A stretch of 63,469 nucleotides of DNA, filler included, from Collodictyon triciliatum (taxonomy: Eukaryota), in NCBI GenBank assembly GCA_043381765.1. It is 33 parts of 33 records of this genome, joined end to end, with 100 filler letters (N's around TTAATTAATTAA, not from the genome) between each part and the next. Parts side by side here need not be neighbours in the genome. Positions count along the whole stretch, not along the records: positions 21,245 to 23,073 come from JBHJMP010010117.1; 32 more parts are not named here. One strand, written 5' to 3'. Position 1 is the stretch's first letter, and every line of letters starts with the position of its first letter. The translations under genes were made by a program, and so were the position numbers. Shown here piece after piece: positions 1 to 50,018 of this stretch. Below the pieces are notes generated by a model. That model did no database searches. It saw nothing but the letters and a program-made list of their open reading frames with translations, and was not told where the DNA came from.

Positions 1-1735
1 CGTTTTATTCCAGCCTTCTCTAGTGTTAAGTATTGATAAATGCTACAATAGTATAATTATCATTTTTGAATATAGGATGGTGATATGGTTTATAAAAGGA
101 TTTTGTCGAGATATTATGTTATGACTGAACAACTTTAAAGCCCAAATCATTACTTCAATAAAAGCATAAAAAAAGGTATAGATGAGCAAAAAAGGGCGAG
201 AAAATGAGAAACAAAATATATATATAAATAAAAATATAAAAGAAAACAATAAAAAACAATAAAAAACAATAAAAAAATAATAATAAACAATAAAACCAAT
301 TAAAAACAATAAAAATAATAAAAATAATAAAAATAAAAAATAATAAAAAACAAAAAAAACAAAAAAACAAAAAAACAAAAAAAACAAAAAAAGAAAATAA
401 ACAGAAAGAAAATGAAAACAACAAAGAAAAAACAATAAAAACAATAAAAACAATAAAAACAATAAAAACACAAAAAAACACAATAAAAACAATAAAAAAC
501 AATAAAAAAAAACAATAAAAAAACAATAAAAACAATTAAAAAACAATAAAAAACAACAAAAACAATAAAAAACAACAAAAACAATAAAACAATAAAAAAA
601 CCAATTAGAAAATAGAAAACAACAAAGACGGCATGTTTCTTTTCTACGAGTCATATTTTTTTTTGTTTGTTGTGTTGTGTTGTGTGAGGAAACTATAGGC
701 AAGGTCAATCCATATAGTTGTGTATTTGCCAGTCTGTCATAGCGGGAGAATGTCCTGTGTACAATTATGCATGACAAACAACACATAGGCAATCACGTCA
801 ACAGTGTTTAGCTTCAAGGGCACAGTCGCACAACACCGCTCACACAACTACACAAAGGTCGAAGCAGGTTGACAGAAAAGCCTATAATAATCAACATAAA
901 CGCGAAAAGGGTGGATATTAGCATTCTCAACACAAGCAAAACGCACTTGAGCAGTCTTTTTTTTAATTGATGAGCAGAAATCGCACGAACGAAAGGGTTT
1001 TTTATTGTGTTTTGCTTCTACTGTTTGGCTGTGTATCAAAAGTTATAGTCGCTGATGATAGAAACAAAACAAAACAAAACAAAATAGTGTAATGTTTTTT
1101 AGTTACCAGAATTATAGGCGGAGGATATGAAAAATGATACGGATGGATTGAGAAGCACTTCAATAGATTATAATAGATGCAATAGAAGACGCATAACCTT
1201 TTTTTTCTTTCTACATGTGTCCTAAATGCCAGGTATATAAACATATGATAATCGTTCATTATACTTGTTAAGGTTTAATAACAAGCTTGATGATGTCGTG
1301 AGAAAGTATGCCATAGTCGACCATACATATGATTACTGGACATATAGAACAGGTTTCCATCTTGCATCATTTTATGCATAATGTTGTATTTGAATATATT
1401 TAACAATTAAAGCATACCACCTTTCCTTTCAATATCATTATTTTTTGAAATTTTGTGTTTAATTGCATATGCTTTTAGTTTTGGCTTGAAACATGGAATC
1501 ATCGTAGATTTAACTATTTTCTGTTAAAAGTAGAACCGATGAGGGTGAACGGTTTTCTTTACCAACCTTTTTTTAAAACTTGATTATACAAGCTGACAAC
1601 CTTTTGCTGGGCAACGAAAAGGACTCACAGCCTGGAAAAATTTACTTAATTCATATATATATATAATTGTGAATGCATAATTATATTATAAATGAAAATA
1701 AGGACTGAAATATTTTGAAAATCATACATATCACC

Positions 1736-1740
<5 letters not shown>

Positions 1741-1834
<94 letters not shown>
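1741..1834. repeat. (CTAT)n microsatellite at a contig end; representative of the simple repeats that end most contigs ((TAA)n, (GTT)n, (GATTT)n, (AAAG)n, (TATG)n, (GAGT)n, (GACTAT)n, (GGTTAT)n, (GTTTT)n, (CA)n, poly-A/T)
   Basis: Perfect tandem repeats seen directly next to the N spacers. Confidence 0.97.
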
Positions 1835-1934
1835 NNNNNNNNNNNNNNNNNNNNNNNNNNNNNNNNNNNNNNNNNNNNTTAATTAATTAANNNNNNNNNN
1901 NNNNNNNNNNNNNNNNNNNNNNNNNNNNNNNNNN
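1835..1934. other. Artificial contig-joining spacer (44 N + TTAATTAATTAA + 44 N); first of 32 in the window
   Basis: The same 100-nt spacer with a six-frame-stop linker recurs every ~1.92-1.93 kb; contig lengths fall from 1834 to 1820 nt. Confidence 0.98.
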
Positions 1935-1970
1935 TTTGAATGATAATAACCTTAACACGTGTATTAAGTT

Positions 1971-2070
<100 letters not shown>

Positions 2071-3729
2071 GTAAAAATAAACAGCAATAAATGAAAATTG
2101 AAAAATGGTTTGTTATCGTGTATAGTCACACTGTCCATGGGATTTCTGCACCGAATTCATAGCATTACTAAGATTCGACCGTATGATAACCTCCATTGGG
2201 TTTATGGTTCATTGGCTTGGTTCGCTCTTCTTTTTTACTTTCTTTTAAATAGCATCCGCCCTTTGATTTGTTTGCGTTAATGGCCTTACTGCACCCCCAT
2301 TCACCAACATTCATATCTTTTCGTCAGAGTTAGAATATTTTTTTCTCTTCATGTTGTCTTCTCTTGTACATCTCTTTCATCTTCTTTCTCAGAGTAACCA
2401 TTCCTTCCTTTGGTGTAACAATGCCACAGTACTATTTGAATATGTAAGCAGTGAAATATGTGACACCCTTTTACCCTCCCCACAGTATATTTGCACAGCT
2501 TATGTTCAGCGGGACATCCATTTCCATGTCGTACGTGTCTTTATCTCTGTCTGCAATCCCTTGGCACCTTTATGTTCTGGGGTAAACATATATCATACAT
2601 GCGGCTCGCCATTATCTTATGTCTTTTTCTTTTTCTCTTTCCTTTTGATTTGTATGCCGTGTATCAATTTTGTGTCTCTTCGCCACTTATACTGGAGAGT
2701 TTACCAAATTATATATCTGAAAGCAACAACAACAAAACAACAACAAAACAACAACAAAACAACAACAAAACAACAACAAAACAACAACAAAACAACAACA
2801 AAACAACAACAAAACAACAACAAAACAACAAAACAACAAACAACAAACAACAAACAACAAACAACAAACAACAAACAACAATAACAACAAAAAATAAAAA
2901 AATAATGGAAACAAAAGACAAATAAGATACTTGAGAACAAAGCAAGTGTTGAAAATAAATCGTCAATGCCACAGATTCTGCTGGCCGCTCCTTATCGTCG
3001 CTGTGGATGAGATGGTCAAGAAGCACGACAAGAAATACTTTCTGCGATTCCAGAAGAGACTCAAACTGGAGCTAAACACAAAGCTGGGAATGCACAGCCC
3101 CGTCTGAGACTCGTCTTTGCCAATCAGCTGCAGCGCCACAACGAACTGACTCGCATCCCCAGAGGAAAAGAACCACGACGCAGCAATAAACAACAACAAC
3201 CATGGAATCATCGGCCTTTCCACAGGATTTCAAATACTATTTCTCTTTTTTTTTTTTTTTTCATAATTTATTGTGTGATGTCTTTTTTTTCTTTTCTTTT
3301 TTTTTTGAACTCCAAACATTATTTCATTGCCAAGAAAGACACTTCTAAAATGCCAGTCGATGAAAAGAAATAATCGAGATAAGCGACATAATGAATGGAT
3401 CAACAGGATGGTGCCGGCTTTAGTTCAACCCTGCTCTTTTTTTTTTCTGTTTTTTTTTGTCTGGTACGTAGACAGGTTCTAAACTACGGCCGAACAAGCA
3501 GTCTGCCATACTCCTGGGGGCATGAATGCAATCGCTGGCAGTGCATTGATAAAGGGAAACTATAGCAGCAATGAATATATATAAAAAGGGCGGGCATGGC
3601 TCTCATTAAAATAAAAAAAAAAGAAAAAAAGGATGAGTTCGACCGGTTGTGAAGATGATGTCAGGGTGTAGGTATGAACTAAAGAAAAGAAGGAATAAGA
3701 TAAGATAGGTTGTTATAGACAAAAAAAAA

Positions 3730-3761
<32 letters not shown>

Positions 3762-4450
3762 AAAAAAANNNNNNNNNNNNNNNNNNNNNNNNNNNNNNNN
3801 NNNNNNNNNNNNTTAATTAATTAANNNNNNNNNNNNNNNNNNNNNNNNNNNNNNNNNNNNNNNNNNNNTTTTGTTTTTTTGTTTTTTTGTTTTTTTGTTT
3901 TTTTGTTTTTTTGTTTCTTGTTTCTTGTTTCTTGTTTTTCTTGAATCGTTTGCTTTTACGCTTTGCAATCCTCTAAAGTATGACAAAAAAAAAACATGGC
4001 AAAGGTAAAAAGCCTCTAAAACGCTGTTATTGAGATCACCTAACACCATGCGTAGGCACCACTGTGTTCTTTGCTCCCCTCTTTCATTCAAAAGCCAGAT
4101 CGCCATAGAAAGACTTTCCGTCCAAGAAATCACCATTGCTTCGCCAGAGTCTGTGCAAAGATGATATATACTCGGTTATATAATTGACTACCAAAGGCGC
4201 TGGAGTTAACCATAGAATCAAAAGCTTATGGAGTATAGCGCAACAACACGATGCTTTCGTGTTTAGCTTTATACCACATCAACAGGCAGCCCACTTCTGT
4301 GGCCAGCTAGAGAAAAAAGGAGGAAAACTCGACGCTGAAGTTTATTCTAATCAACTCCCAACTATTCTGAAAAGTATTAAAATGATTATGACCCCATTTC
4401 TTTCCTTTCCTTTTTTTTTTTTTTTTTTTATAATGCTCAGTCCGGTGAGG

Positions 4451-5581
4451 ATGGCTGATACTGGAGGCGACCACAGCTCAACCCCAGATAATGGTATGCT
4501 TATTTATTTCAGCTTCATCGCGCGCTCGCCATCCCTTCATATACTTTCTTTTGCTTGCCTTCGATATTAATGTTGAAGACCTATCGAAAGGGCACTTTCG
4601 GGAGTCATCTAGCGCAAGAGAAGCATCGAAGCAGAGACCGCATCGCCTACCAACTTCTTCCCGGGAGAGTTCTCAACGGAGAGAATCCACAACCCCCGGT
4701 CGAGAGACACGCCGACGGAACTCTCTATACGCAATTATGCCATTGGTCCTGTTCATTAGTTTGATATTCTTGTTTCAGGGATATGTATTTTATTGCAGCA
4801 CAACAGCGCGCGGTAATCATATTGCTTTTGATTCAGGTATTGTGGCATAAATCAAATGTTTTTTTCTCTTTCTCTTTTCTTCCATTCTTTCATTCTTTAT
4901 TTTTATTCTTTATTTTCTTTTCTTTTTTCTTCCATTCTTTCATTCTTTCATTCTTTCATTCTTTATTCTTTATTCTTTATTCTTTATTCTTTATTCTTTA
5001 TTCTTTATTCTTTATTCTTTATTCTTTATTCTTTATTCTTTATTCTTTACTTTTCCCCATCACTGAGCTATATATGTGATTACTATTTTAGTTTCATTAT
5101 TGCCCATTTGAATTTTCCGCCTGTCGTTCTTGTGTGGCAACTGTTTTCCATATAATTAATTTCGTTTATTTCGCATTCATCTTTATATGATTGATAGAAT
5201 CATGTTTTCCATGTCCTCATGGATGGGTATGTGATAAAGGAAGAATGGTGTGTCCAGTTGGAACCCATATGGACGGTGGTGTTTGTATTTTAGGCAATAC
5301 AGAGAGAGTCTACCTGCTAAAGTTTTTAGAGAAGAGTATTTTAGATGAGCTTGAATATACTAAGGTTAATCTTTTAGCAATCAATCAATAGCATGAAATA
5401 AACTATTATATCTGAACTATCTTTGGGTATTATTTTGCATATCATTAACTTAGATTATTGGTGGTTTCTTCAGGAATATTCATTCTGTATGAGGAATTCC
5501 ACAACAGCAAAAATAAGCGACGATAATTTGATTGAAATGTTGCATAGAAAGATGAATATTCCACATCGCTACCTACGACTC
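4451..5581 (+). CDS. Intron-containing membrane protein fragment, possibly Man1/Src1 (MSC-domain) inner nuclear membrane family
   Basis: S/R-rich N-terminus, TM segment LYAIMPLVLFISLIFLF, then Cys-rich CFPCPHGWVCDKGRMVCPVGTHMDGGVC and a later exon EYSFC; GT-AG introns; 3' end missing. Confidence 0.4.
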
Positions 5582-8001: not shown

Positions 8002-8015
8002 TTCTTGGCTAATGT

Positions 8016-9566
8016 ATGGGTTTTTTCATAACAGAAGAAAAGGAACTACCGGAATTTTCCAATCAAGACGCAAACAAAGTATTAAAAGTCGATTCAAGTG
8101 GGCTTTATTTACAGTGGCTGCAGGAAACAGTAGCACCGGCTGAGCTTCCAAGTCAAACTGGGAACAGTGGCCGATTTCTAAGCACTGATGGCTCAGTACC
8201 TGCTTGGTCAACTATTTCACAAGTTCCCGGGCAAACCGCAGGAAATAATGGTCAATTTCTTACATCTAATGGCTCCAGTTCTTCGTGGGCGAGTGTTTCT
8301 CAGGTTCCAAGTCAATCATCACAAAGTGGGCGGTTTTTAACAACCAACGGTACCGCAGCAAGCTGGGCTGTTATTTCTCAAGTACCTTCAACAACAGGAA
8401 ACGATAATCGAGTGCTTGCTGTCGCTTCTGGAGGTAATGCTACTTGGACCAATAACTTAACGGTATCCAGTTCATTAGTCACAGTGCCTCATCTTCAAGT
8501 AAGTACAGGCACAGCAGCAAGCAATGGTATTTTTACATCAGGTGGAACAAATAGTGGAATCAGATGGCAGTCGGGATCAAATGTAAGAATACTTAGTAAT
8601 GGCACAACAGTGATTGATTTTTCGAATGCTAGTTCAGACCCACTTTGTTCAATAGAAGAAGCTATTGTTATGAAAAAATCTGTAAGACAACTTGTAAACA
8701 CCGTAGCTTCTTCTTTTAGTTTAGCAGTTGACAGCGCTAGTATACATCGAATAAATTTAACAGGAGCCGCAAATGATGTAACCATAACATTGACCGAGCG
8801 CGCAAATGGTACTAGATGTACATTTATTCCGTATAGAACAGCACCAACAACTCGTAAAACATTTTTAACAGTAGCCAGTTCTACTATTTTTATTCAGATA
8901 ATGCACAATCAAACCAACACACAGATTATATTTCCAAATACCTACGAAATGTTTGAAGGGGCGGTTTATCATTGTATTTATGTAGCTAGTGCTCTTACTT
9001 GGTATGTTTGGATATCCGGACTAGCAACAAATATTTCGGATCCGTTTGTAATTGGTACAACTATAGATTTTCAGGCAGCAAGTTCAGGCGCTAGAATACA
9101 AGGGTCAAATAATGGAGCAAACTCTAGTATAATTTTAATTTGTAATAACACAACAAGTTGTAATTTTACAGTTAATGATACCGAAGTTCAAAATTCGCTA
9201 CGACTATTCAAAGCGCCGCTTACCGATTTTATAATACACGACAGCGGAACGCACACTGTGAGTCGAAATTCACCAAATAAAATCGTATTGACAATACAGC
9301 AATCGGGAACTTCAAATGCAGTAATTGTATTTCCAGTAAGTACTGATGTCCCGAATGGACTAGAAATTCAAGTATTTGTCTGGAGGTTGTCAGGTAGAAC
9401 TGGAACAGGTGTTCAGCAAATCAGATTTGATTCAGCCAGTCCAACAAATAACGCCTTTGTCCTCGGGTCTAGCGGCACAGGTATCGCACTTGGAGGCACA
9501 ACGTACACTGTCACAGAAGGTACGATGTTTAAAGCTACTAATTTCCGTACAACGATAGGACGATGG
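8016..9566 (+). CDS. Viral fibre/spike-like protein, 3' truncated, intron-less
   Basis: More than 510 codons open; five ~26-aa tail-fibre-type repeats (e.g. LPSQTGNSGRFLSTDGSVPAW) then two related beta-rich S/T/N/G domains. Confidence 0.7.
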
Positions 9567-21244: not shown

Positions 21245-23055
21245 CGCTGCCAGGAAAGACCCGACAGCCTGTTTTTTAGAGGAAGGTGTATGCATATTTT
21301 GAAGGATTAAAAGAACTTTGTTGAGTATATTCTTAGCGCTGTTAAAGTCCCTTGTTGAGAATGCATTTTGTTTGCTCTATGAGCGATAGCATTCTTTACA
21401 TATGAGACATATAAAACTTTTTTTTTGTATTTTCTTTCGGCTTCATATATTCCAGTTCTTATTCGCAGTTGCAGCACATCTTGGAGGTTCTAAATCCATC
21501 TACACTAACTGGTTCAAAACGTTTGATAGTATTTTTCGTAATCATCTTCTGATTGTTGGCATAAAATGTTTCATCGGACATTTTCTGCTCCAGTCTCCAT
21601 ACGCCAGTAAAACATCCTTGCCAAATGTCTTTTCGATTCAGTCCATAAACAACTGTTCGCTTCTATTTGTATTAACATGCTGTCTCCATCTCATCTTTCG
21701 AAAAGTCACGTGTTCATAAAATCTGGATAATTCTATCTGGTACCTCGATTTCATATACATATTTTTGAAACTTTTTTTCATAATCGACCGTGCATGAATT
21801 ATGTCTATTCATTTCTGTCTCTAAATCGATTAAAGATACTCTTGATGCCTCAAACTGCTGATTTTCTTCAAAAGTCATTTGAACAAAAGAAACAGCACTT
21901 TGTAAATCTGTTGCCATATATACCCCTGAAGTCTCGTATTTTTTTCTTTTTTCTCGCGCAAGAGTATTTTGTGATTTTAAAGAGTTTGCTATCATGTCTT
22001 CTTTGGTGTGTCGTGTAATGTAATTTCTTACCTGTCTCATCCATCATGTAAACCAAATTAAACTTGCCTGCATCCACTACAACTATTTTTTTTCGCTAAT
22101 AAAGATAACTGCTCTTCAGAAGTTCATGTATATAGATAAATTCTTAGGTTTTTTTTTGATTATATTGGAATTTGAATTTGAAATACATTTCTTTTCAAAC
22201 GATTATAACACTACCGAGCCGTCTGTTTGTATCATGTATTTAAAATTGTAGTCTCTTTGATTATAGACTCTCTTCTTCATTTCAAAGAAATCATCCCATA
22301 GCGTCTCTTTGCATCTTGATATATTCTTCATTAATGTTGTTTTTCCAGATGGTACTAACAGATCTATCAAACATGCAGTATCTAGACTAATATGACATGA
22401 TATATTGTTAGCTCTTATAGAGATTGGTTGAAACAGTTTGGTTCCAATGCCTCAAAAATGTGATTCATGTAAATAAGACATGGAATGTACTTATTTGGAT
22501 TGACTTGATATCGTATTCGATACCATTTACAATATCGCTGGGAATGATATGATGCAAATGCGTTTTAGCCCATCCTTTATATTGTTATGGTATCTCGAGA
22601 TTCTTGAAGATAGCTTTTTTTTAAGTTTCGTAACTCTGCTTTTTTAATAGCTTCCGTCATATTCTTATCTACAGGAACTGTTTGGTTTATAAAGCGCAGT
22701 AATCTCTTTACAAAATGTACCTTAATGTTATTATGATAAGCTGCTAACATTTGCTTCGCCAAGTACGGTAATACATGGGACAGTCCAACCAACGGAAAGC
22801 GTCCTTCTCGGGACAAAAGGAATCGAAAATCATGGAGATACAAAAATCATTATGTCATCTCTCATTTCTGATTTTTTTTTCTTTTTTTAATCTTGCGAAT
22901 CTACCTTGTGAAACTATTCCGGCTGTCTTAAAAGCGTGAAAAAAAAAAACATTTAATCGATTGTTCGGAGTTGTTGTGATTTCATTATGTAACATCTTGC
23001 AAACAGATAAGTGTCGGTAACCAAATTACGACACAATAAAACCGCATCGTTTTTT
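21245..23055 (-). pseudogene. Fanzor1-type (TnpB-family) RNA-guided RuvC endonuclease pseudogene
   Basis: Read across frameshifts: NDAVLLCRNLVTDTYLFARCYI...KLFQPISIRANNISCHISLDTACLIDL...FKYMIQTDG...IVVVDAGKFNLVYMMDETGKKLHYTTHQRRHDS (RuvC-I D at 22072-22074)...FYEHVTFRKMRWRQHVNTNRSEQLFMD*IEKTFGKDVLLAYGDWSRKCPMKHFMPT...VSVDGFRTSKMCCNC...CLICKEC...RDFNSAKNIL (RuvC-III D at 21347-21349). Several stops and frameshifts. Confidence 0.9.
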
Positions 23056-23173
23056 TTTTTTTTTCATATTAATNNNNNNNNNNNNNNNNNNNNNNNNNNN
23101 NNNNNNNNNNNNNNNNNTTAATTAATTAANNNNNNNNNNNNNNNNNNNNNNNNNNNNNNNNNNNNNNNNNNNN

Positions 23174-31427: not shown

Positions 31428-32698
31428 TTATTCTACTCTGAAAGTCTGTTGGTTGGATTGAATTTCAAGGACGGCATCGTACAAACTTGCAATAATAACC
31501 TGGTAGTCCTTTCCAACAGCACCACTAAACTCTAGCCGCAAACTCATCAAGCCGCTGCCGGATGACTGGATGTCTGATCCGACGATCTCCCCCTCAACTG
31601 CATCGAGGACTTTGCGCAGATTGAAGCCAAGCATGAATTCAGAACATCCTTGTGCGGCTTCACGTAAACAACGAATTACATTCGTAGCGTCAGCATCAGC
31701 AAGAGCATTACCTGCTCCATCTTGATAGCTGTTGTAATTAGTATTTTCAAATCTAACAGCATCAGTTCCATATACTGCGCTAATAGGAACACCATTTTCA
31801 GTTCTAGCTGTTATTTCACAACTACTTGTTAAATTAAAAGTAGTTCCATATTTTGGTCCTCTGAATTCAGTTCCATCAAATCCAAACGGCCCAGTGTATT
31901 CCCCACGAACAAAAGTAAGACCTAGTGCCTTTTGTAATTCAATAAATACCTGACTTGCATCATTTTCACAATCCATAGGTTGAAGAGGGTAATAAAATGA
32001 GCCCAGTTGTAGCTGGGCAGTTTTGAGGTTTGTTGGAAAATGTTTTCTGTCACGGCCTGCTACTGTAAATTTATTTTGCTCGGCACTGTCGAAAAAAGCA
32101 ACATAAACAGCGTTTAATGACTTTACTGTATCATTAATATTATACACAATATTTGAAGTTGTTGTCGCTGGCAATGAGTAAAGTGAAGTCCTCCACGTCT
32201 TATAGGGAATTTGCAGGGGAATTCCTCTTTGAATACTTGACTGCAATTGTTGGTGATATTCAGGAGCCATTCTCACCAAATCATAAGACATATAACAATT
32301 AGATAAAACATATGAAGCTGTAGCGTCTGGAAGTCCAATAACAAGTCTTGAGTTAGTTGCTTCAACATCACTATGATAAGCTTGCATACACTGAGATGCT
32401 GGTGCGAGCTCTATTTCAATCTGAAAGGCAGTAACACTATCGATTAAACTTGTAGAAATCAAACCCGAATACTGACTTATACCAGATAATCGCAAAGGAA
32501 TACAATAATTTTTCTTTTTTAATGGTGAATTCAACGTTTGTTCTGATCTATGGTACCGAATTCTTTCATATGCAGAACCAATACCCATCGTAGCTTTGCC
32601 TACTGTATTATTAAAATCATCTGAAACATAATTCATAAACATAGAGTCCAAATAATTATATCTTTGTATATCTTCGAGTAAAAAGGACGTTCCCTTTC
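31428..32698 (-). CDS. Polinton-like-virus major capsid protein (double jelly-roll), paralogue A, 5' truncated
   Basis: Intron-less and open to the gap (LLEDIQRYNYLDSMF...); colinear motifs with 34746-36524 such as IPLRLSG...IEIELAPASQC, YVLSNC, LQIPYKTW, SLNAVY, QLQLGSFYYPLQPM, ELQKALG, FMLGFNL, YDAVLEI. Confidence 0.8.
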
Positions 32699-47301: not shown

Positions 47302-48047
47302 ATGAGGCTTCCCACCGCAAGCTGGAGACAATCGCGAACCCCGCAAGTCCTTCCAAATCACCGCTCTCTAATGCATAATATCACCAATAGGGAGCTCTGG
47401 ATAGGCACACGCGCGGCAAAAGCTGGCAAAGTCTCCCAACAATGCACACTTTGCAGCGACGGTGATGAATCCATTGAGCACACATATGTGCAATGTCTCT
47501 TCGCTCAAAACCTGCGCGAAACGGCCGGTGAGATTCTTCGGCTGACATTCAAGACGGGTGCAGCTGTTTGTCCAATCCAGGCGATATTTGGGCCTCTGCA
47601 ACAACAGCTGCGTCCAGATGCAAAAACACTATGGACAGTGACGCGAGGCCATTTGCTATGGACTATGTGGATAGCACGCATATACTTACGCAAACCAAGA
47701 CTCAACAACAACCCACCCATTCCTGATAACAGGCTGGATGACATCATACAAATCTCTTTCCTCAATGGCTTTCTTCGCCACCTGCACGTTCTCTACTACT
47801 CCGACCCCGTGAGAAGAGACATGTGGAAAGAGGCTGAGAAAGTGATTCAACCTCGCCTTGCCTCTCTCATGCAAGCACAAGACCCAGGCTACAGGCCAAA
47901 CCACAGGATGCAATTCCTGATTACCGGCTACTTCTCCGCCAACCAGCCACCAAGTAGCGTCCATGCAAACGATGACTAGCGAACCAGAGCCAACAACCCT
48001 ATCATCCTGCACAAAATTGAAAGGAAGAAAAAAAGACAAAAAAAAAA
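47302..48047 (+). mobile_element. 3' part of an L1/Tx1-like non-LTR retrotransposon (ORF2 C-terminal zf-RVT, short 3' UTR, A-rich tail)
   Basis: CTLCSDGDESIEHTYVQC (CCHC) followed by LWTMWIARI; stop at 47979; A-rich tail; homologous copies at 24739 and 61294. Confidence 0.88.
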
Positions 48048-49011
48048 TGAACCCCGAATAAGTCATACGCCGCATCGCGCATATTACAAAGTCTCNNNNN
48101 NNNNNNNNNNNNNNNNNNNNNNNNNNNNNNNNNNNNNNNTTAATTAATTAANNNNNNNNNNNNNNNNNNNNNNNNNNNNNNNNNNNNNNNNNNNNGCTTG
48201 ACGCAGCAGCCAGCAACCAACCAAGCAAGCAGCAGTGTTTTTTGTCTCGACTGCCTTCCTCAAGTCGTCTTTCAAGCTTCACTCACACATGTGCGAGCAC
48301 ACACGAGACTCGAACAGCCTTCAACTTACTTTCGGCTGAATAATGCAGTGTTTTTACTATGACACGCACGAAGCCTCTCAAGTAAGTCTTTGCTTTGCTT
48401 TGCTTCTTCATTATGTTTTTTATTTTTCTGTCTTCAGAATTCTCCTTTTTATTTTGTTACAAAAACAGACACGCACGATGATTTCTCTCAATTCTTTTAT
48501 CTCACTTCGCCATTTTTCTTTAGAATTTTGGCAAAATTTCCGCTTCTTTCTGCTGCCCACACGCGAAGCTTCTTGTAATTTTTATTGTTATCGAATCATA
48601 ATTTGTCTTATGTTTTTTTTTGATTTCGTCGAACTTTGCTAAACTTTTTTATTTTCCAGTTATTGTGTTTTTCATGTTATTTTCAATAGAAGTCTTCCAA
48701 ATCAACCTTTTTTTCTTGCCAGCCGTCTAGTTTTTGCCGCTATCTCCGCTAACCTTACTATCGACGCTAAAAAACCCCGATTGCACCTCCGAATCTCTGC
48801 TATTTATTTCGCAGCTGATTCGTCCCTCTTCACTTTCCTGCTTTTCTTTCAGCCGCAGCCAGTTATCTGCAACCCGTCACCTTCACCCATTCCCAAGCAA
48901 TACGACACCAAACAAATAATCACTGCGCAACCTGCCCACACAAAACTCGACTCATTCGTCTCCGGTTTCCTCAGACAGCGTCACAACCACCTTCCGTCCC
49001 CCTCCGCCGCC

Positions 49012-50018
49012 ATGGCTGATCGCGCCGCCCGTCTCGAAGAGCTGCGAAAAATCGTCGGTTACGGCAGCATCGCGGAGCTCGAAAAACGCACAGAGCTGAA
49101 ACTCAATAACAAAAAACTGACTTCTTTGCCGCCCGGTGTCTGGGATCTGCCAGGCTTGGTGAAGTTGTCGCTCTGGGAAAATCAGCTTTCGTCGCTGCCG
49201 CCGGAAATATCGAAGTTGACGGGACTCGCGGAGCTTCGTGTTAGTGTAAACCAGCTTTCGTCGCTGCCGCCGGAAATATCGCAGTTGACGGGACTCGAAG
49301 TGCTTTATGTTGGTAACAACCGGCTTTCGTCGCTGCCGCCGGAAATATCGCGGTTGACGGGACTCGCGTTGCTTAGTGTTGGTGTCAACCAGCTTTCGTC
49401 GCTGCCACCGGAAATATCGCAGTTGACAGGCTTGGTGAAGCTTAGTGTTAGTAGAAATCTGCTTTCGTCGCTGCCTCCGAAAATATCGCAGTTGACGGGA
49501 CTCGAGGAGCTTAATGTTCATGGCAATCAGCTTTCGTCGCTGCCGCCGGAAATATCGCACTTGACGGGACTCACGGAGCTTTGGGTTTACAGCAACCCTG
49601 TAAGTGTTTTGTTGTTTTTGTTTTATTAAAGAAAAGTGACTAACGATGTGTGCAGATCAAGGAGCTTCCACCGCAAATCACGGCACTCACGAATCTGAAG
49701 TATCTCAACATCGAGTATGATGGGAATATAAGCATCAAGCGCGCACCGCGCGGAATCACGAACCTGCCGTGCTGGAAAGAAAAAGGAAGAGAAAGAGAAC
49801 ACATCCAAAAGCTGCAGTTATACGAAGTACCAGTAAGTCATATTAATACAATAATAAAATAAAAATAATTTTTTTTTAAAAAAACGAAGAATACTAAAAA
49901 TAACAAATAGGAAGCAGAAATGCTGAAGCCAGGCTGGACACCGAACGCAACCCAAATCCACTTTGAATCGCTGAATTTTTACGGAATGAACATCTCTGCG
50001 CTTCCACCCAACATCACG
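49012..50018 (+). CDS. Leucine-rich-repeat protein with near-identical 23-aa (69-bp) tandem LRRs; exons 49012-49599, 49656-49832, 49911-gap
   Basis: Seven units of the type LSSLPPEISQLTGLxxLxVxxNQ; GTAAGT donors and a GACTAAC branch site; 3' end missing. Confidence 0.9.

Follow-up and report, generated by a model that had tools for sequence, protein, structure and literature searches.

The decayed remains of a Fanzor1-type nuclease gene on a short contig of the Collodictyon triciliatum assembly

A short unplaced contig in the genome assembly of Collodictyon triciliatum (GCA_043381765.1) almost certainly contains a near full-length and long-dead copy of a Fanzor1 gene (positions 21260-23051, minus strand). 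The copy is homologous to Fanzor1 genes and colinear with them, its reading frame is broken by stop codons and frameshifts, and conserved residues have been altered. The contig is one part of a stretch of 63,469 nucleotides, filler included, which is referred to here as the window; all positions are those of the window.

The contig and the decay of its gene

The window is made of 33 short unplaced contigs in size order, one of which has an internal N gap and so gives 34 ACGT blocks. There are 32 copies of the linker TTAATTAATTAA, ~1.93 kb apart and with N runs on each side (0.04 occurrences would be expected by chance), and the ACGT blocks between the linkers fall gradually in size from 1834 to 1820 bp. 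The Fanzor1 relic occupies exactly one of these contigs, 21245-23073, and is its sole content; the first-pass annotation had ended the block at 23055, which is incorrect, as the contig runs to 23073. The following features define the contig and the gene.

21245-23073, no strand: whole unplaced contig of 1829 bp, with an artificial linker (N run, TTAATTAATTAA, N run) on both sides
21260-23051, minus strand: decayed Fanzor1 coding region, colinear with residues 42-610 of a 634-aa relative, P0003; 540 matched codons, 44% identical
23050-23067, minus strand: possible start remnant, an ATG (23065-23067) followed by 15 A

Because artificial linkers flank 21245-23073, the neighboring sequence in the window provides no genomic context. 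Likewise, the gene fills the 1829-bp contig, and so the element ends, the guide RNA and any partner transposase lie off the contig. The ATG at 23065-23067 may be the old start of the gene, with ~35 codons deleted after it; one extra A would join Met-Lys5 to the start of the alignment in a single frame. At the other end, the limit of the contig at 21245 lies ~24 codons before the expected stop, and these codons plus everything downstream are missing. In Fanzor1 systems, the omega-RNA is encoded where the 3' end of the gene meets the right end of the element. Therefore, with the 3' part of the gene missing, the zone in which this RNA and the right end are expected is absent. There is no noteworthy inverted repeat within the contig (21245-23073), and Rfam and tRNA scans across the window gave no match. 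A mutation bias of the RIP type is not apparent: the TpA/ApT ratio of the contig is 0.74 and its (CA+TG)/(AC+GT) ratio is 1.33, both inside the range of the other contigs.

For the alignment of the gene, we used a custom program for local protein-to-DNA comparison in which the frame may change (BLOSUM62, gap 11/1, frameshift 12, stop -6). Residues 42-610 of P0003 align with 23051-21260 (minus strand) with a score of 826, and 239 of the 540 matched codons are identical (44%). Six controls scored between 35 and 53 (plus strand 36, reversed protein 40 and four shuffles 53, 35, 47 and 37), and a chance origin of the alignment is excluded. Thus, the frameshift-aware alignment that the first-pass annotation had proposed as a check of its reading is colinear and scores far above the controls. 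The tblastn HSPs of P0003 are also colinear, and they are spread across three frames.

22840-22448, minus strand: P0003 residues 111-242
22445-22218, minus strand: P0003 residues 244-320
22092-21988, minus strand: P0003 residues 366-400
21751-21260, minus strand: P0003 residues 445-610

The number of defects varies with the frameshift penalty and the reference protein. With P0003 and a penalty of 12, there are 15 frame jumps, six stops in matched columns and three more in inserted codons; a penalty of 20 gives 10 frame jumps and 15 stops, and a penalty of 30 gives eight frameshifts and 16 stops. When P0012 replaces P0003 as the reference, the numbers are 11 frameshifts and 11 stops. Across these settings, the frameshifts range from 8 to 15 and the stops from 9 to 16. 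The first-pass annotation had mentioned four or more in-frame stops along with several frameshifts; these defects are real, and it had undercounted them. Six stops, spanning 21377-22587 (minus strand), are common to all four alignment runs.

22585-22587, minus strand: TAA, facing P in P0003
22144-22146, minus strand: TAA, facing Y in P0003
21638-21640, minus strand: TGA, facing K in P0003
21542-21544, minus strand: TGA, facing G in P0003
21459-21461, minus strand: TAA, facing D in P0003
21377-21379, minus strand: TAG, facing E in P0003

One could argue that the gene is intact and that sequencing errors in homopolymers, introns or an unusual genetic code account for the breaks. Fragmentation of the assembly is high, six of the 15 frame jumps are no more than 5 nt away from a homopolymer of at least six, and introns are known in Fanzor genes (PMC10530073). 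Given their proximity to homopolymers, some of the frameshifts may indeed be sequencing or assembly errors. However, the other nine frameshifts are away from homopolymers, and the six recurrent stops lie inside well-aligned blocks in four of the four runs. Codon reassignment was rejected as a cause: TAA, TAG and TGA are all present and face six different residues of P0003, and so reassignment cannot account for the stops; furthermore, no stops interrupt the long ORFs on other window contigs when the standard code is used. Introns were rejected as the cause of the stops as well, because matching residues flank every recurrent stop. Finally, two columns that are invariant in 46 of 46 relatives are altered, including that of the catalytic Glu. 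No uninterrupted reading frame is found in the relic, and an intact gene is thus a very improbable explanation.

Identity of the gene and the state of its active site

As judged from the sequences, the strong evidence for a Fanzor1 identity comes by way of the relatives of the relic and not from its own frames. The direct PDB matches of these frames are weak (E 1.1e-3 to 0.72). A read-through frame with stops written as X (P0001) matches PpFz1 with an E of 1.1e-3 and SpuFz1 with an E of 0.029, both at the GDWS region, and the RuvC-I piece matches the RuvC-I site of SpuFz1, upstream of the GDWS match, with an E of 0.72. A PDB search with the 82-aa WED piece produced chance-level matches only. 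Pfam searches with nine single-frame pieces and three longer read-through frames of the relic revealed no relevant family; the silence on the single pieces is due to their short length and high divergence. Word-index searches gave no candidate for the 82-aa piece among near-length proteins, and none of the 1022 candidates scored when a 246-aa read-through was compared to longer proteins.

P0001 was also compared exhaustively by HMMER to 1.84 billion representatives. Of the 576 proteins that matched at E<=1e-3, 69 passed E<=1e-10, and there were no matches at E<=1e-30. Many of the matches are proteins of 600-700 aa that align at their C-terminal third. The top match is the 634-aa P0003 (E 4.6e-28, 39% identity). 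When P0003 is compared at full length to solved structures, it matches SpuFz1 (9.2e-37), PpFz1 (7.2e-34) and GtFz1 (7e-16), and these three Fanzor1 proteins are the only three PDB chains at E<=1e-3. A family profile, A1, built from 37 full-length relatives gave still stronger matches to PpFz1 (5.1e-101), SpuFz1 (3.3e-98) and GtFz1 (9e-78). The other five of its eight PDB matches at E<=1 have E values of 0.0034 or weaker and include LaTranC, a cellulase, UnCas12m4a and a chain named 'Transposase'; no chain named Fanzor2 is among the eight. An hhalign comparison of A1 with P0001 has a probability of 99.8% and an E of 7.8e-29 over 158 columns. The first-pass annotation had called the gene Fanzor1-type, and the full-length match of P0003 to SpuFz1, together with the A1 matches to three Fanzor1 proteins, bears this out. 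It had also said that the reading should be given up if there were no significant profile match or if the motifs were not colinear; the hhalign match is significant and the motifs are colinear. We regard a failure of homology to Fanzor1 as excluded.

A prokaryotic TnpB or a Fanzor2, either from a contaminant or from an IS607-type element, must also be considered. Seven of nine relatives match the Cas12f1-like_TNB family of Pfam (PF07282) at E<=0.01 in their C-terminal zinc ribbon, which is common to TnpB, and one of them reaches the curated cut-off. On the other hand, the A1 matches to the three Fanzor1 proteins (E 1e-78 to 1e-101) contrast with E values of 0.0034 or weaker for TnpB/Cas12-like chains, and the alignment of the relic covers the long N-terminal half typical of Fanzor1. 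This full-length similarity, along with the structure and profile matches, separates Fanzor1 from Fanzor2 and TnpB, and we attach practically no probability to the latter two as the source of the gene.

The state of individual residues was read from a table in which the read-through of the relic, with an X at each break, was aligned with 46 full-length relatives. The latter are all of the matches and cluster members of 560-720 aa, with shorter and longer proteins excluded. The motifs listed in the first-pass annotation are all present on the minus strand in the order given there, and their coordinates were verified; the pieces that bear them are spread over three different frames of this strand.

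22413-22439, minus strand: KLFQPISIR of the WED-type region; seven of nine columns have the commonest residue among the 46 relatives
22218-22238, minus strand: YMIQTDG; T in 46/46 relatives, D in 41/46 and G in 45/46
22063-22077, minus strand: RuvC-I VDAGK; catalytic Asp retained (GAT 22072-22074), D in 45/46 relatives
21587-21604, minus strand: AYGDWS; Gly (21596-21598) at the canonical RuvC-II position, G in 46/46 relatives
21480-21509, minus strand: VSVDGFRTSK; GGA (Gly, 21495-21497) at the relocated catalytic Glu, E in 46/46 relatives
21389-21476, minus strand: zinc-ribbon remnant, CCNC (21465-21476) and CKEC (21389-21400)
21326-21352, minus strand: RuvC-III RDFNSAKNI; catalytic Asp retained (21347-21349), D in 45/46 relatives

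The two deviations in KLFQPISIR are an S where P is usual and a second I where L is usual among the 46 relatives. The residue after the RuvC-I Asp is Ala in the relic (GCA 22069-22071) and Pro in all 46 relatives. The Cys columns of the zinc ribbon, which are C in 38-40 of the 46 relatives, are retained, and the ribbon is interrupted between its CxxC pairs by the TAA at 21459-21461 and a frameshift near 21428.

Bao and Jurka (2013, PMC3627910) described a motif for the Fanzor/TnpB superfamily, D-X(125,275)-[TS]-[TS]-X-X-[C4 zinc finger]-X(5,50)-RD. The relic contains all of its elements, with the D at 22072-22074, T-S-K-M-C from 21488, the CxxC pairs at 21465-21476 and 21389-21400 and the RD at 21347-21352. 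The spacing from the D to the TS is ~195 codons, and 12 codons separate the last Cys from the RD. The motif can be read in the relic only across frame joins, and two stops and one frameshift lie within it.

According to PMC10530073, all Fanzors have Gly or Pro in place of the canonical RuvC-II Glu, an alternative Glu is located ~45 residues downstream, and mutating this alternative Glu abolishes cleavage. An extremely conserved G and E had been reported for Fanzor1 by Bao and Jurka (PMC3627910), and the active site of SpuFz1 consists of D383, E541 and D606 (PMC10432273). The first-pass annotation had stated that the relocated-Glu layout characterizes Fanzors, in agreement with PMC10530073. As read from the residue table, the Gly at the RuvC-II site of the relic is this Fanzor hallmark, with the canonical Glu lost. 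No alternative Glu precedes the zinc ribbon; its codon reads GGA at 21495-21497, exactly as had been noted. Judged by its column in the alignment, the Gly in place of the relocated Glu argues against activity, and not against descent. As had been concluded at first sight, the copy is dead: stops and frameshifts break it, and the Glu has been replaced at a column that is E in all 46 relatives.

Siblings, carrier transposon and origin

Two sibling fragments of the relic are present in a public collection, each from a source contig of ~0.5 kb. P0004 has 84 aa and is 68% identical to the relic; P0078 has 59 aa and is 74-79% identical in two frames. Each of them has stretches equal to out-of-frame readings of the relic contig, and so their source copies must be frameshifted too, at partly different places. 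For example, P0078 passes uninterrupted over the junction near 21528, where the relic contig and P0004 share a wrong-frame reading, which hints that some of the defects are older than the last duplications. These protein comparisons would suggest that the two siblings, with defects of their own, and the relic belong to an old multi-copy family. No second relic copy was found on the other window contigs by blastn or tblastx, and a word-index search with P0004 against near-length proteins returned only P0004 itself. The first-pass annotation had proposed that the genome carries such a family; the two public fragments, which may or may not stem from the same assembly, support this only in part.

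The nearest intact relatives, P0003 and its kin, come from 10 metagenome loci and five viral-collection loci. Their contigs include ones of 254, 173, 82, 67 and 57 kb, and one is named as a giant-virus MAG. At one locus (L003), the shared unit occupies 1637-4952 (3316 bp) and ends in perfect 32-bp inverted repeats. It contains a gene for a 346-aa transposase (DDE_3 E 1.3e-13, HTH_28 E 2.9e-5) on the opposite strand to the gene for the 634-aa Fanzor1. Similarity among eight loci begins at the left inverted end and ceases at the right; in two shorter loci, it reaches the right inverted end only. At the DNA level, the relic and these loci share only 64-390 nt with 64-78% identity. A quick maximum-likelihood tree was built from 53 rows (the relic, 46 proteins and six locus translations). 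In it, the relic is sister to the P0003/L003 clade with an SH-aLRT of 90, which is below the tool's star at 95, and the relic branch is long (1.33). A tblastn search of the other window contigs found no homologue of the L003 transposase.

By analogy with these loci, the ancestral carrier of the relic was probably a Tc1/mariner-type element. The evidence for Tc1/mariner comes only from relatives whose proteins are 44% identical to that of the relic. Fanzor1 genes occur in at least five transposon superfamilies (PMC3627910), which makes the carrier of the ancestor uncertain.

The history that we propose begins with an ancestral gene for a ~630-aa omega-RNA-guided DNA endonuclease. The N-terminal half of this protein was of the WED/REC type, and it was followed by a split RuvC and a zinc ribbon. 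RuvC catalysis depended on the Asp residues of RuvC-I and RuvC-III and on the relocated Glu that immediately precedes the ribbon. By analogy with the relatives, its gene would have been a passenger in a cut-and-paste Tc1/mariner (DDE_3) transposon with terminal inverted repeats. In such elements, the DDE transposase mobilizes the DNA, and a guide RNA transcribed at the 3' end of the element directs the nuclease. By extension from TnpB, the nuclease would cut sites resembling the place of insertion and so help the element to persist. The relic itself is incapable of these steps, with at least eight frameshifts, at least nine stops and a catalytic Glu changed to Gly, and its decay presumably took place neutrally in the genome of a eukaryote.

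We tentatively suggest, as one possibility, that the relic and its two siblings derive from a Tc1/mariner-Fanzor1 element borne by a giant virus, or from endogenized giant-virus DNA carrying such an element, which entered this ciliated/flagellated eukaryote, multiplied and died. If true, this would provide an example, open to dating, of an RNA-guided nuclease transposon passing from virus to host.

It could also be that the relic is simply a fragment of giant-virus DNA, either endogenized and decaying or co-assembled, and that the Fanzor element was resident in the virus. This explanation draws on the fact that the closest intact relatives were found on viral-collection contigs (five loci, 57-254 kb), with which the relic groups in the quick tree, and on the argument of Bao and Jurka (PMC3627910) for a viral origin of a Hydra contig's Mariner-Fanzor1 element. 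In addition, a 600-aa ORF on another window contig (34746-36548) has viral capsid proteins as its nearest protein-atlas clusters; the top cluster has a score of 0.98, and Capsid_N is present on 24% of its members. Two capsid-like ORFs on other window contigs had no PDB sequence match, and we treat the capsid-like ORF only as a lead to virus-like DNA in the assembly. However, a replicating virus would not keep a gene with at least eight frameshifts, and the relic could therefore be at most an old viral insertion. Two siblings with different defects are consistent with an element that amplified, or inserted repeatedly, and then decayed in the genome of a cell, and the GC content of the relic contig (0.33) is inside the 0.28-0.49 of the other contigs. 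Furthermore, since the contig contains the Fanzor relic alone, no viral neighbor gene can be demonstrated. We consider a mere viral fragment doubtful; 1.8 kb of DNA is insufficient to decide between a host transposon and an integrated giant virus.

As a side observation, no RNA run was listed for the sequence; six sequencing runs share only 5-11% of the sampled words, and four of them are freshwater, lake or subsurface metagenomes; we give this no evidential weight.

Comparison with known systems

TnpB proteins (IS200/IS605 family, e.g., ISDra2) are prokaryotic, have ~400 aa and are paired with TnpA. The relic resembles them in its RuvC and zinc-ribbon core and, as a feature of the family, in dependence on a guide RNA; a subset called 'TnpB2' even has the same relocated Glu as the Fanzors (PMC10530073). 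Unlike TnpB, the relic can be aligned with a Fanzor1 of 634 aa, N-terminal half included.

The solved Fanzor1 proteins are SpuFz1 from Spizellomyces punctatus (8gkh), PpFz1 from Parasitella parasitica (9cf0) and GtFz1 from Guillardia theta (9cer). The relic shares with them the WED/REC-type half, the RuvC-I Asp, the Gly at the RuvC-II site, the [TS][TS]xxC zinc ribbon and the RuvC-III RD. It differs from them in that it is distant (direct E values of 1e-3 to 0.03) and broken and has a Gly where SpuFz1 has E541 (PMC10432273). The host of SpuFz1 contains 42 full or partial loci (PMC10432273). Fanzor1 genes and decayed copies are already known across eukaryotes and giant viruses; the relic alone matters little, and neither an active nuclease nor a guide RNA or element ends can be obtained from it. 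For annotators of this assembly, the practical consequence is that the Fanzor1 family should be masked.

Another parallel is with the Mariner/Tc1-type Fanzor1 elements PGv-1, PUl-1 and HMa-1 from giant viruses and some eukaryotes (Bao and Jurka 2013, PMC3627910). By their description, they have the same layout as the relatives of the relic (the P0003 clade and L003), with a DDE_3 transposase and a Fanzor1 between inverted ends. The relic contig differs in having no transposase, inverted ends or target-site duplication, as both ends of the element lie off the contig. That viruses spread Fanzors between eukaryotes is an old suggestion (PMC3627910). The relic has a modest value as a marker of a past Fanzor1 invasion by a family that has its nearest living relatives in giant-virus transposons, and such an invasion fits the idea of viral Fanzor spread put forward in that paper.

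Composition of the window

The window (1-63469) is made up of 33 contigs of about 1.82-1.83 kb each, which are ordered by size and joined by linkers of the form N-run/TTAATTAATTAA/N-run. It is no chromosome stretch, and therefore, arguments from neighbourhood across any linker are void.

Other open reading frames in the window

Several of the contigs carry ORFs other than the decayed Fanzor1 gene:
8013-9566, plus strand, 518-aa ORF that runs open to the contig end
23176-24360, plus strand, 394-aa ORF on the contig after the decayed Fanzor1 contig
31428-32696, minus strand, 422-aa ORF that runs open to the contig end
34746-36548, minus strand, 600-aa ORF that occupies an entire contig
47302-47979 and 48643-49629, both plus strand, two separate ORFs with Pfam domains (zf-RVT and LRR)

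The 600-aa ORF had no match in the Pfam or PDB sequence searches. Its nearest clusters in the protein atlas are viral capsid clusters (score 0.98), in which Capsid_N is present on 24% of the members and which include Preplasmiviricota and Nucleocytoviricota. This ORF may encode the major capsid protein of either a virophage or a polinton-like virus. The 422-aa ORF, two contigs away, resembles it in composition; neither Pfam nor PDB gave a match to this second protein.

The 518-aa ORF repeats a 'SQVP...G.FL..NG...W' unit within its first third and looks like a fibre or an adhesin; the Pfam scan gave no family. The 394-aa ORF is also without a match in the Pfam scan; in the protein atlas it lies closest to clusters of dynein heavy chain tail fragments (0.95, DHC_N1). 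As a lead only, this points to a eukaryote with cilia or flagella. One ORF of the last pair has the zf-RVT domain of a LINE-type reverse transcriptase tail (E 5.6e-7), and the other encodes a leucine-rich-repeat protein (LRR_8, E 2.3e-26).

Relatives of the decayed Fanzor1 gene

Two short sibling fragments bear on the age of the Fanzor1 defects. The decayed contig (21503-21560, minus strand) and the sibling P0004 have one and the same out-of-frame reading after LRKILS, whereas the other sibling, P0078, keeps the true frame past this point. Therefore, some of the defects may predate the last duplication of the family. The 378-aa Fanzor-like fragment P0005 is called '6-pyruvoyl-tetrahydropterin synthase' in one source, which is probably a mis-annotation because the Pfam scan detected no such domain at E<=0.01.

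An intact relative resides in a 254-kb giant-virus metagenome contig (locus L003):
L003 1637-4952, intact Tc1/mariner-type element of 3316 bp

The element has perfect inverted ends of 32 bp and encodes a 346-aa DDE_3 transposase together with a 634-aa Fanzor1; a search for a target-site duplication revealed no clear one. Copies with 73-80% DNA identity are present in other contigs, both viral and unclassified.
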